From: an uncultured Nitrososphaerales archaeon
GTDB lineage: Archaea > Thermoproteota > Nitrososphaeria > Nitrososphaerales > Nitrososphaeraceae
NCBI GenBank assembly: GCA_963713605.1
Contig: CAVQMO010000001.1
Coordinates: forward strand, 512,001-576,000
Length of the DNA: 64,000 nt
Direction: 5' to 3'
Below, piece after piece: positions 2,255 to 39,134 of the stretch (the stretch's first letter is position 1; every line of letters starts with the position of its first letter). Position numbers and translations under genes: made by a program. Below the pieces are notes generated by a model. That model saw only the letters and a program-made list of their open reading frames with translations. It was not told the DNA's origin and ran no database searches.

Positions 2255-2384
2255 AGCCCGGTCGAGCACGTCGTAAACGTGCGCCGAATCTAGTGGCCAA
2301 ACTTACTTGAGGGCTAGGGATTTCAGGCTCTGGATCTACAAGAAAAGAAACCTGAGGACAGCAGTTCGAATCTGCTCCGGGCTA
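2255..2384 (+). tRNA. tRNA-Gln(CUG) with three introns (2265-2288, 2301-2317, 2334-2349)
   Basis: Acceptor stem AGCCCGG/CCGGGCT plus A; T-arm AGCAG-TTCGAAT-CTGCT; anticodon stem TCAGG/CCTGA with CTG. Removing three BHB-like inserts gives a canonical 73-nt cloverleaf. Confidence 0.88.
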
Positions 2385-2393
2385 CTCTTCAAT

Positions 2394-3995
2394 TTACTGT
2401 GTTCTAGGACCCGCCTTAATGATTTCTATCGGCATATTGCCAAATCTCCCGAAGTTTTTGACGAATAGAGAAGCGAGTCTTTTAGCAGATTCCAAATACT
2501 TTTGTTTGTCAGACCATGTGTTGATAGGATCAAGAATATAATCTGGGACCCCAGGGCATGAGATCGGAATCTCCACATTGAATATTTCGTGTCGTCTATA
2601 AGAAACCTTTTCCAAATCACCATTGATTGCAGCTTTCACCATGGACCTAGTGTGTTGAAGGTTCATCCTACGTCCAACCCCATATGGTCCCCCTACCCAA
2701 CCTGTGTTTATCAAATAAACCTTTGAATTATGTTGGGCAATTCTTTTGCCAAGCATGTCCGCGTATACTCTTGGCTTCAACATCATGAACGGTGCGCCAA
2801 AACAATGAGAAAAGGTCTCTTGTGGTTCAGTGATGCCCCTTTCGGTGCCAGCCAACTTACTAGTGTACCCGGACATAAAGTGATACATAGCATGTTCCTT
2901 TGACAATCTTCCGATTGGAGGGAGTACCCCGAACGCATCTGCTGCTAGGAATATAATGACATCTGGATGGTTCCCTAAACTTGGCACAACGGCGTTTGGA
3001 ATGAATTCAATCGGATACGCAACCCGGGTGTTTTCTGTTAGAGACTCGTCATCAAAATTGGGTTCACGACTTTGGTCTAGGATAACATTCTCCATAACCG
3101 ATCCAAACCTTATTGCATTCCATATTTGTGGTTCCTTAGATCTTTGTAAGTTTATACATTTTGCGTAACAACCGCCTTCAAAGTTGAAGATACCATTCTT
3201 TGACCATCCATGTTCATCGTCTCCAATGAGACGTCTCTCTGGATCAGCTGAAAGTGTCGTTTTTCCAGTCCCTGACAAGCCAAAAAATAGGGCCGTCCTT
3301 CCATCACTACCTATGTTCGCGGAGCAATGCATAGGAAAAATATCTTTGAGAGGAAGCAGATAATTCATTGCAGAAAACATTGATTTTTTTATTTCTCCTG
3401 CATAGGACGTAGAGCCAATCAATACAAGGCGCTTCGTGAGATTGAGAATGATGAAGGTTTCACTTTTTGTTCTTTCTACTTCTGGGCGAGCTTGAAAATC
3501 AATTATAGAAAGAATAGTAAATGATGGATGATGAATTAGAAGTTCTGGTGGACTTGGGCGGATGAAAATCTGCATCGCAAACAGATTGTGCCATGCACTA
3601 TCTGTTATTGTCCTGATCGAAAGCCTACTCTCTTTCTCTGCTCCAATGAATCCATCGAACACAAAAGCTTCCTTTCCTTCTAGGGATCTTTTCATCCTAT
3701 CGAATATTCGATCAAATATCTCAGGAGACAATGGGTGATTTATCTTTCCCCAATCAACTGAATCATGTGTCAAGTCATCATCCACAATATATCTGTCATC
3801 AGGAGATCGGCCCGTAAACTTGCCGGTTCTGACCGAAAGAGCCCCGGTTGTAGAGAGTTTCCCTTCACGCCTATGAATAGCAGCTTCAATCAATGATGGA
3901 GGGGGTAGGTTTCTGTGCAGCTTAGAAAAATTGAAACCCGCCTCTTGTAGTTGAACAGAACATCTAAGGTCCGATGCTAATAAGCTGTCATTCAT
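2394..3995 (-). CDS. pckA: Phosphoenolpyruvate carboxykinase (ATP)
   Basis: TGRSPDDR, YAGEIKKS, FFGLSGTGKTTLSAD, IGDDEHGW and NFEGGCYAK motifs. Confidence 0.97.
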   Translation of the reverse strand: MNDSLLASDLRCSVQLQEAGFNFSKLHRNLPPPSLIEAAIHRREGKLSTTGALSVRTGKFTGRSPDDRYIVDDDLTHDSVDWGKINHPLSPEIFDRIFDRMKRSLEGKEAFVFDGFIGAEKESRLSIRTITDSAWHNLFAMQIFIRPSPPELLIHHPSFTILSIIDFQARPEVERTKSETFIILNLTKRLVLIGSTSYAGEIKKSMFSAMNYLLPLKDIFPMHCSANIGSDGRTALFFGLSGTGKTTLSADPERRLIGDDEHGWSKNGIFNFEGGCYAKCINLQRSKEPQIWNAIRFGSVMENVILDQSREPNFDDESLTENTRVAYPIEFIPNAVVPSLGNHPDVIIFLAADAFGVLPPIGRLSKEHAMYHFMSGYTSKLAGTERGITEPQETFSHCFGAPFMMLKPRVYADMLGKRIAQHNSKVYLINTGWVGGPYGVGRRMNLQHTRSMVKAAINGDLEKVSYRRHEIFNVEIPISCPGVPDYILDPINTWSDKQKYLESAKRLASLFVKNFGRFGNMPIEIIKAGPRTQ

Positions 3996-39041: not shown

Positions 39042-39134
39042 GGGTTCGTAGCTCAGCCAGGTAGAGCGTCTGGCTCTTAACCAGTCAGTGTGAATTGGGT
39101 TATAATGTCGTGGGTCCGAATCCCACCGAACCCG
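39042..39134 (+). tRNA. tRNA-Lys(CUU) with a 19-nt intron at 42/43 (39085-39103)
   Basis: Acceptor GGGTTCG/CGAACCC; D-arm GCTC/GAGC; after splicing the anticodon arm reads TCTGG-CTCTTAA-CCAGA; T-arm GTGGG-TCCGAAT-CCCAC; TTTAAATA box at 39007. Confidence 0.92.

Follow-up and report, generated by a model that had tools for sequence, protein, structure and literature searches.

How can an intron be removed from a tRNA when the helix that marks its splice sites is built from bases of the acceptor stem? This question is raised by positions 2255–2384 of the window, a 64,000-nt stretch of DNA from an uncultured archaeon of the Nitrososphaeraceae, in which a tRNA-Gln(CUG) gene is interrupted by three BHB-type introns, the first of them between nt 10 and nt 11. 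The gene and its inserts are real, and taken by itself such a triple-intron gene would simply add one more case to a known class; multi-intron archaeal tRNAs, cited as established background in the original prediction for this locus, and HBh' motifs are on record in the available text of PMC4090602 and PMC8450103. The 5' leader of a tRNA is commonly regarded as dispensable; in this gene it seems to be under selection as a structural component of splicing.

Gene structure and intron motifs

The gene consists of four exons of 10, 12, 16 and 35 nt and three inserts of 24, 17 and 16 nt, all on the plus strand. Exon 1 (2255–2264) supplies nt 1–10, and its nt 5–8 (2259–2262) form one strand of the central helix of intron 1 (2265–2288, at 10/11). 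Exon 2 (2289–2300), placed by ARAGORN on the spliced form, holds nt 11–21 of the D arm and precedes intron 2 (2301–2317), which lies at 21/22 by the Sprinzl count. Exon 3 (2318–2333) holds nt 22–37 with the anticodon CTG at 2330–2332 and is followed by intron 3 (2334–2349) at the canonical position 37/38, and exon 4 (2350–2384) contributes nt 38–73, with the 3' acceptor strand at 2377–2383, the discriminator A at 2384 and no encoded CCA. Three inserts at these coordinates and a canonical 73-nt tRNA after their excision had been predicted, and both hold: the exons sum to 73 nt, and the spliced form was accepted by ARAGORN as tRNA-Gln(CTG) with complete acceptor, D, anticodon and T arms. When the seven intron-retaining forms were submitted to the same program, four gave no gene, two the wrong isotype and one a truncated call. 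The unspliced gene was matched neither by ARAGORN nor by Rfam at the gathering threshold, as foreseen in the expectation that standard scans would probably miss it, which is true of these two scans. tRNAscan-SE 2.0 may detect the gene, given that it includes a Thaumarchaeota intron model (PMC8450103); the accessible part of its supplement has no Gln gene among 12 Nitrososphaera rows.

Intron 1 combines a CGGT/GCCG helix of four pairs, one of them G-U, with the bulges CG^A and AA^T and a 6-bp hairpin (2266–2271/2277–2282), the intronic helix strand lying at 2283–2286. No exonic outer helix is formed (C-C, C-T, G-A), and intron 1 is therefore of the HBh' type. Intron 2 pairs GGCC with GGCT (2295–2298/2312–2315) at all four positions, again with one G-U. 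For intron 3 the helix CTCT/AAAG (2328–2331 with 2344–2347) reaches three of four pairs, with a mismatch of C34 with A, so that the 4-bp helix predicted for each insert stands for introns 1 and 2 and fails for intron 3. Both outer helices of intron 3 are present, and it fits the class called relaxed in the available text of an Asgard preprint (bioRxiv 10.64898/2026.10.13.758758). Each predicted cut lies two bases 3' of its helix strand (CG^A/AA^T, AA^A/AG^G and GG^A/AA^A), and hairpins are present in all three introns.

Mispairing at C34 by the canonical intron of tRNA-Gln(CUG) is found in nearly all relatives: in 96 genes parsed, the intron 3 strand was AAAG in 81, GAAG in 13 and ATAG and GGAG in one each, and a U34 would pair. 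The second intron also varies, lying at 24/25 instead of 21/22 in the tRNA-Gln(CUG) of L034 and L035 (family f4) and of L143; the 7-base motif with which intron 2 terminates in the family of the window is nonetheless present in the 24/25 intron of f4 and L143.

Across that family the exons are near-invariant, and the inserts vary in length with their hairpins retained. Each of 67 distinct intron 1 sequences carries a hairpin of 3–11 contiguous pairs. Among the matches listed, intron 1 is missing from 10 distinct orthologs, in which nt 10 is followed directly by nt 11, and these natural intronless forms fix the register at 10/11, so that the junction cannot slide. Other tRNA architectures were considered and rejected. 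A split, trans-spliced tRNA is out, the four exons being colinear within 130 nt and the leader being complementary to an exon; a permuted tRNA is out as well, since the exon order is normal and exons 2–4 each occur once in the genome.

The gene in its host genome and in RNA data

The assembly measures 4.09 Mb and is 87% complete. Within it tRNA-Gln(CUG) is a single-copy gene, and neither a spliced junction nor an intronless tRNA-Gln(CUG) copy elsewhere, the check named in the original prediction, was found. In the long ORFs of the genome CAG accounts for 8,551 of 20,177 Gln codons. The other isoacceptor, tRNA-Gln(UUG), lies outside the window (G000:C1:458299-458393, minus strand) and has a single 22-nt intron, likewise at 10/11, preceded by an exact leader copy of its nt 1–7 at −8. 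A relaxed search for further tRNAs in this genome returned nothing new. Two endA-family genes (PF01974 / TIGR00324) score above the cut-off; the protein from one has a K-P-K loop that by eye resembles the crenarchaeal loop of PMC12397907, and the other also matches beta-subunit models, below their cut-off.

Of 24 runs, 8 were examined as contigs, seven of them labelled RNA and one of unknown kind. All eight contained unspliced contigs only, with no spliced joint. In contig X11 (depth 3.7) an adapter directly precedes 2256 and all three introns are retained; contigs cannot show RNA starts, and X11 points only weakly to 5' trimming that could come before intron 1 is removed. Adapters after 2381–2382 in four runs and contig starts at 2256–2262 fit a tRNA-sized precursor, with the same caution that contigs cannot show RNA ends, and are given no weight as evidence. 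Contigs starting at 2350 or 2318 were weighed as splice products and rejected: strains differ there, with other letters at 2349 and 2317, and these starts are accordingly read as assembly branch points.

The unspliced contigs are what would be expected if the inserts were never removed and the locus were a pseudogene, with CAG read by tRNA-Gln(UUG). Such a reading is extremely improbable. A decayed locus is at odds with near-invariant exons and with insert motifs kept across the family, and CAG codons at the frequency given above would have to be served in an assembly that has no intronless copy. The UUG gene offers no escape, because it too bears a 10/11 intron, and the cell must remove one.

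Spread of the 10/11 intron and of the leader copy

An exon 4 pattern gave one match each in 37 of 61 genomes, among them 34 of 36 of the same family, a tally that counts the unpublished genome G013 (33 of 35 without it), which enters no other result. One ortholog per genome at this frequency shows that the feature is not a chance match. Of 36 genes read, 35 bear the 10/11 insert; in the remaining one (L014) nt 10 is joined to nt 11. A wider genome scan yielded at least 120 loci. Among the matches listed, insert-bearing loci are mostly labelled Nitrososphaeraceae, Nitrososphaera or Nitrosocosmicus, by which the window falls among the ammonia-oxidising archaea of soil, and intronless 73-nt genes that share the acceptor stem are mostly labelled Methanomicrobiales. 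Across the order, the 10/11 intron is present in 109 of 142 distinct Gln genes examined, the gene counts leaving out duplicates, two loci with a cut leader (L042, L174) and two with a cut 5' end (L126, L179). The position is thus not rare.

The intron also extends beyond the order and beyond Gln. A search pattern that ignores the leader was run on 401 genomes of the phylum, and nine of the 26 loci examined were dropped on inspection as chance matches; outside the order, 15 intron-bearing Gln genes were found in six families. Two further leader-blind patterns were each run on 301 genomes; of the 42 loci examined, 18 are tRNAs of other isotypes that carry a 10/11 insert, namely 15 of Glu type from eight families (11 named Glu by ARAGORN, the other four assigned from their exons), two Trp and one likely Ala. 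The other 24 were not read as 10/11-intron tRNAs, two of them being ordinary Arg-like tRNAs matched out of register. These results weaken the novelty suggested for the position, as allowed for in the original prediction: the intron is common in relatives, in Gln, Glu, Trp and likely Ala genes across the phylum. The positions named in the available text of PMC4090602 (3/4, 20/21, 22/23, 25/26, 29/30, 30/31, 45/46, 53/54, 56/57, 59/60 'etc.') do not include 10/11, which may already be catalogued.

The two Trp genes (L248:1501-1705 in G096 and L249:1501-1701 in G128) are tRNA-Trp(CCA) with five introns, located at 10/11, in the anticodon stem, at 37/38, in the variable loop and in the T loop; their 74-nt spliced form was accepted by ARAGORN. 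The 10/11 and variable-loop introns of L248 are identical except for the last base, and an identical stretch of six exon bases stands before each, a pattern suggestive of copying inside one gene.

Upstream of the gene in the window, 2247–2253 reads AGCTCGG, a copy of nt 1–7 with one C-to-T change that pairs at all seven positions with the 3' acceptor strand (2377–2383). This copy co-occurs with the 10/11 intron. At least six contiguous pairs between the leader and nt 66–72 are present in 101 of 109 Gln genes with the intron and in one of 33 without it, both isoacceptors being tested for six contiguous pairs within 15 nt; these counts, like those outside the order, overstate independence, because the genomes are related and no tree stands behind them. 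With the threshold set at a leader helix of at least 7 bp and among the matches listed, the figures are 68 of 73 for intron-bearing CUG genes, one of 10 for intronless genes of ammonia oxidisers and one of 55 for intronless controls with the same acceptor stem, mostly labelled Methanomicrobiales. Seven genomes (G026, G041, G044, G046, G049, G057 and G059) pair an intron-bearing Gln paralog that has the copy with an intronless paralog that does not. In the genome of the window itself, seven leader pairs occur only in the two Gln genes and at most five in the other 33 of 35 tRNA candidates, an incomplete control set with no Trp or Tyr gene.

Outside the order, the copy makes seven of seven pairs in all 15 Gln genes of the six families; two further Gln genes of family f13 reach six and four pairs; L231 has four contiguous leader pairs only. 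Each of the 18 non-Gln genes has a 6- or 7-base copy of its own acceptor strand within about 26 nt. Eight intron-bearing genes of the order fail the leader test. In five of them the copy is displaced, broken up or limited to 5 bp, and three (L021, L022 and L084) retain a 10/11 intron of 36–37 nt with a long hairpin, the copy having decayed to three or four pairs. Conversely, a copy persists in two intronless tRNA-Gln(CUG) genes. That of L167 lies at −8 and has C-to-T changes; that of L169 lies at about −28, with a complementary stretch after it. Both are possibly remnants left after intron loss.

A near-direct repeat of the 5' end, often one base from +1 and tied to the intron, could also be a neutral scar, that is, a short duplication that arose with the insertion of the intron and has merely been inherited, and L167 and L169 would then be its traces in intronless genes. 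This origin is improbable, given the pattern of conservation. Leader bases on either side diverge and the spacer ranges from −8 to −25, yet the copy itself persists in many families, and in the ten intronless orthologs it has decayed. Its changes also respect pairing: among 19 distinct 7-mer copies, those at positions 3–5 keep pairing in 13 and break it in four, the ends fraying, and the internal changes are mostly C-to-T with G-U pairing kept. Acceptor pair 6–67 is inverted in G050 (L191, L192), with matching changes in the leader copy and in the intron helix strand. Where the helix continues into the trailer, compensatory pairs are seen as well: the leader base that faces nt 74 is paired in 48 of 50 cases (G-C in 43, A-T in four and G-T in one). 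In the likely Ala gene L289 a G-U pair of the native stem becomes A-U with the copy.

The location of the copy bears on another alternative. A TATA-like box, the inferred promoter, lies at 2217–2224 in the window, 30 nt upstream of the start of the copy, and across 133 genes an A/T-rich box occupies −30 to −25 from that start. Its information content is 6.67 when genes are aligned on the copy versus 5.18 when they are aligned on +1, from which the copy is likely to sit at the transcript start. The roughly fixed distance would also suit a DNA element, either an initiator or a factor site, that marks where transcription begins and has no role in RNA pairing. It is highly improbable that the copy is such an element and nothing else: its sequence changes with the acceptor of its host gene (Gln, Glu, Trp and likely Ala), and it is missing from the other 33 tRNA candidates of the genome. 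Like the scar and pseudogene readings, a DNA start-site element fits the observations poorly. The leader copy was also considered as a true first exon and rejected, since the removed piece would be 8 nt without a motif, the spacer is variable and many copies are mismatched at nt 7.

Predicted role of the leader copy in splicing

The gene, its junctions, the leader copy, the co-occurrence with the intron and the covariation can all be read directly in the DNA. The copy is a well-supported cis element with a predicted decoy role, and the reason to expect such a role is a folding conflict: the splice helix of intron 1 needs nt 5–8, and the acceptor stem ties up three of these. A competition between this helix and the cloverleaf had been part of the original prediction, and computation bears it out; the leader copy that likely resolves the conflict was absent from that account. 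Forcing the splice helix in the gene of the window costs 0.8 kcal/mol with the leader, compared with 4.8 kcal/mol without it, and the probability of the helix is 0.18 with 15 nt of native leader and 0.01 with none or with shuffled leaders. Over 109 genes the median probability is 0.22 with the native leader, 0.00 with none and 0.05 with shuffled leaders; the native value is higher than that without a leader in 107 genes and higher than that with shuffled leaders in 87. A probability above 0.5 is reached by 34 of 109 genes with the leader and by one of 109 without it. By these calculations the leader almost brings the splice-ready fold level with the cloverleaf in stability. The native acceptor still dominates the computed ensemble of the gene in the window (0.74), and the model is therefore one of a switch between near-equal states.

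Based on these observations, we favour, at a probability of about three in four, the reading that in this single-copy triple-intron tRNA-Gln(CUG) gene the leader copy pairs with nt 66–72 and thereby frees nt 5–8 for the splice helix at 10/11. Transcription would begin at or just before the decoy, which would then pair with nt 66–72 as a stand-in acceptor helix and let nt 5–8 pair with the intron. The two-subunit splicing endonuclease would cut at CG^A and AA^T, followed by ligation of the exons. The decoy would next be displaced by nt 1–7, the D stem would close, and the leader would finally be removed by RNase P. Introns 2 and 3 would require no decoy. In genes of this class, intron 1 would thus leave ahead of 5' trimming. 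If true, the scheme explains the removal of an intron whose splice helix needs acceptor-stem bases, by means of a decoy specific to the acceptor sequence of each tRNA, and predicts an inverted processing order.

The main alternative, a role in timing or quality control, would make use of the same pairing. The copy would hold nt 66–72 so that RNase P, 3' processing or charging is diverted or delayed, and splicing would proceed through breathing of the acceptor stem. Co-occurrence and covariation are accounted for equally well in this way, and the three genes that retain the intron despite a decayed copy speak in its favour. The usual archaeal order, moreover, is ends first, as described for Methanopyrus kandleri, in which end trimming precedes intron removal (available text of PMC3695527), and a 10/11 intron might need a block on that order. 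As a replacement for the decoy role it is nevertheless unlikely, because without the leader the splice helix is almost absent from the computed folds, by the median, the single gene above 0.5 and the 4.8 kcal/mol given above. The two roles can also coexist.

Several known systems share parts of the proposed decoy arrangement. The BHB introns of Thermoproteales and Thaumarchaeota are similar in that a gene may hold as many as three, in their HBh' as well as relaxed motifs and in the two-subunit endonuclease, and differ in that the available text of PMC4090602 and PMC8450103 describes no leader helper strand. In the split tRNAs of Nanoarchaeum, Caldivirga and others, as far as the available parts of PMC4033280 and PMC3218864 go, pairing outside the exons likewise lets the BHB form; there, however, leader and trailer pair between two transcripts and inside the motif, whereas in tRNA-Gln(CUG) the leader of one transcript pairs with an exon strand outside the motif and would act by displacement. 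Five D-stem introns with a removal order set by motif stability are described for Cyanidioschyzon merolae, which differs in being eukaryotic and in having no leader element in the available text (PMC3728597). The Asgard tRNAs resemble the present case in D-arm introns missed by annotators and in up to five introns per gene; acceptor and junction introns are few there and deferred to a supplementary note, and the main text of the preprint never uses the word 'leader' (bioRxiv 10.64898/2026.10.13.758758). Introns in acceptor-stem regions are mentioned in PMC12397907, and the tRNA-Gln(CUG) of Caldiarchaeum is reported to be multi-intron, with positions not given in the available text (PMC3082918). 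A literature search of titles and abstract starts, with the main intron catalogues and most subscription papers outside its scope, found no 10/11 intron or leader decoy.

Considering the Gln, Glu, Trp and likely Ala genes together, a general form of the decoy reading is somewhat favoured, with less assurance than for the gene in the window. Archaeal introns near the acceptor stem would be governed by a strand-exchange switch in cis, in which a spare acceptor 5' strand at the start of the transcript keeps the 3' strand occupied, permits splicing and inverts the usual order of trimming and splicing, and the gain of a copy would open positions such as 10/11 across Thermoproteota. For annotation, the leader copy provides a simple signature for missed tRNA genes in soil ammonia oxidisers and related archaea.

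Elsewhere in the window, a tRNA-Lys(CTT) at 39042–39134 carries some 20 extra nt in its variable region, which are likely another non-canonical intron. Upstream of tRNA-Gln(CUG), the overlapping hydrophobic ORFs 1487–1804 and 1722–2099 (within 1487–2099) lie in different frames and look like one frameshifted membrane-protein gene. On the other side, a 533-aa ORF on the minus strand (2394–3995) is convergent with the tRNA and ends 10 nt past it; we take its product to resemble ATP-dependent PEP carboxykinase.
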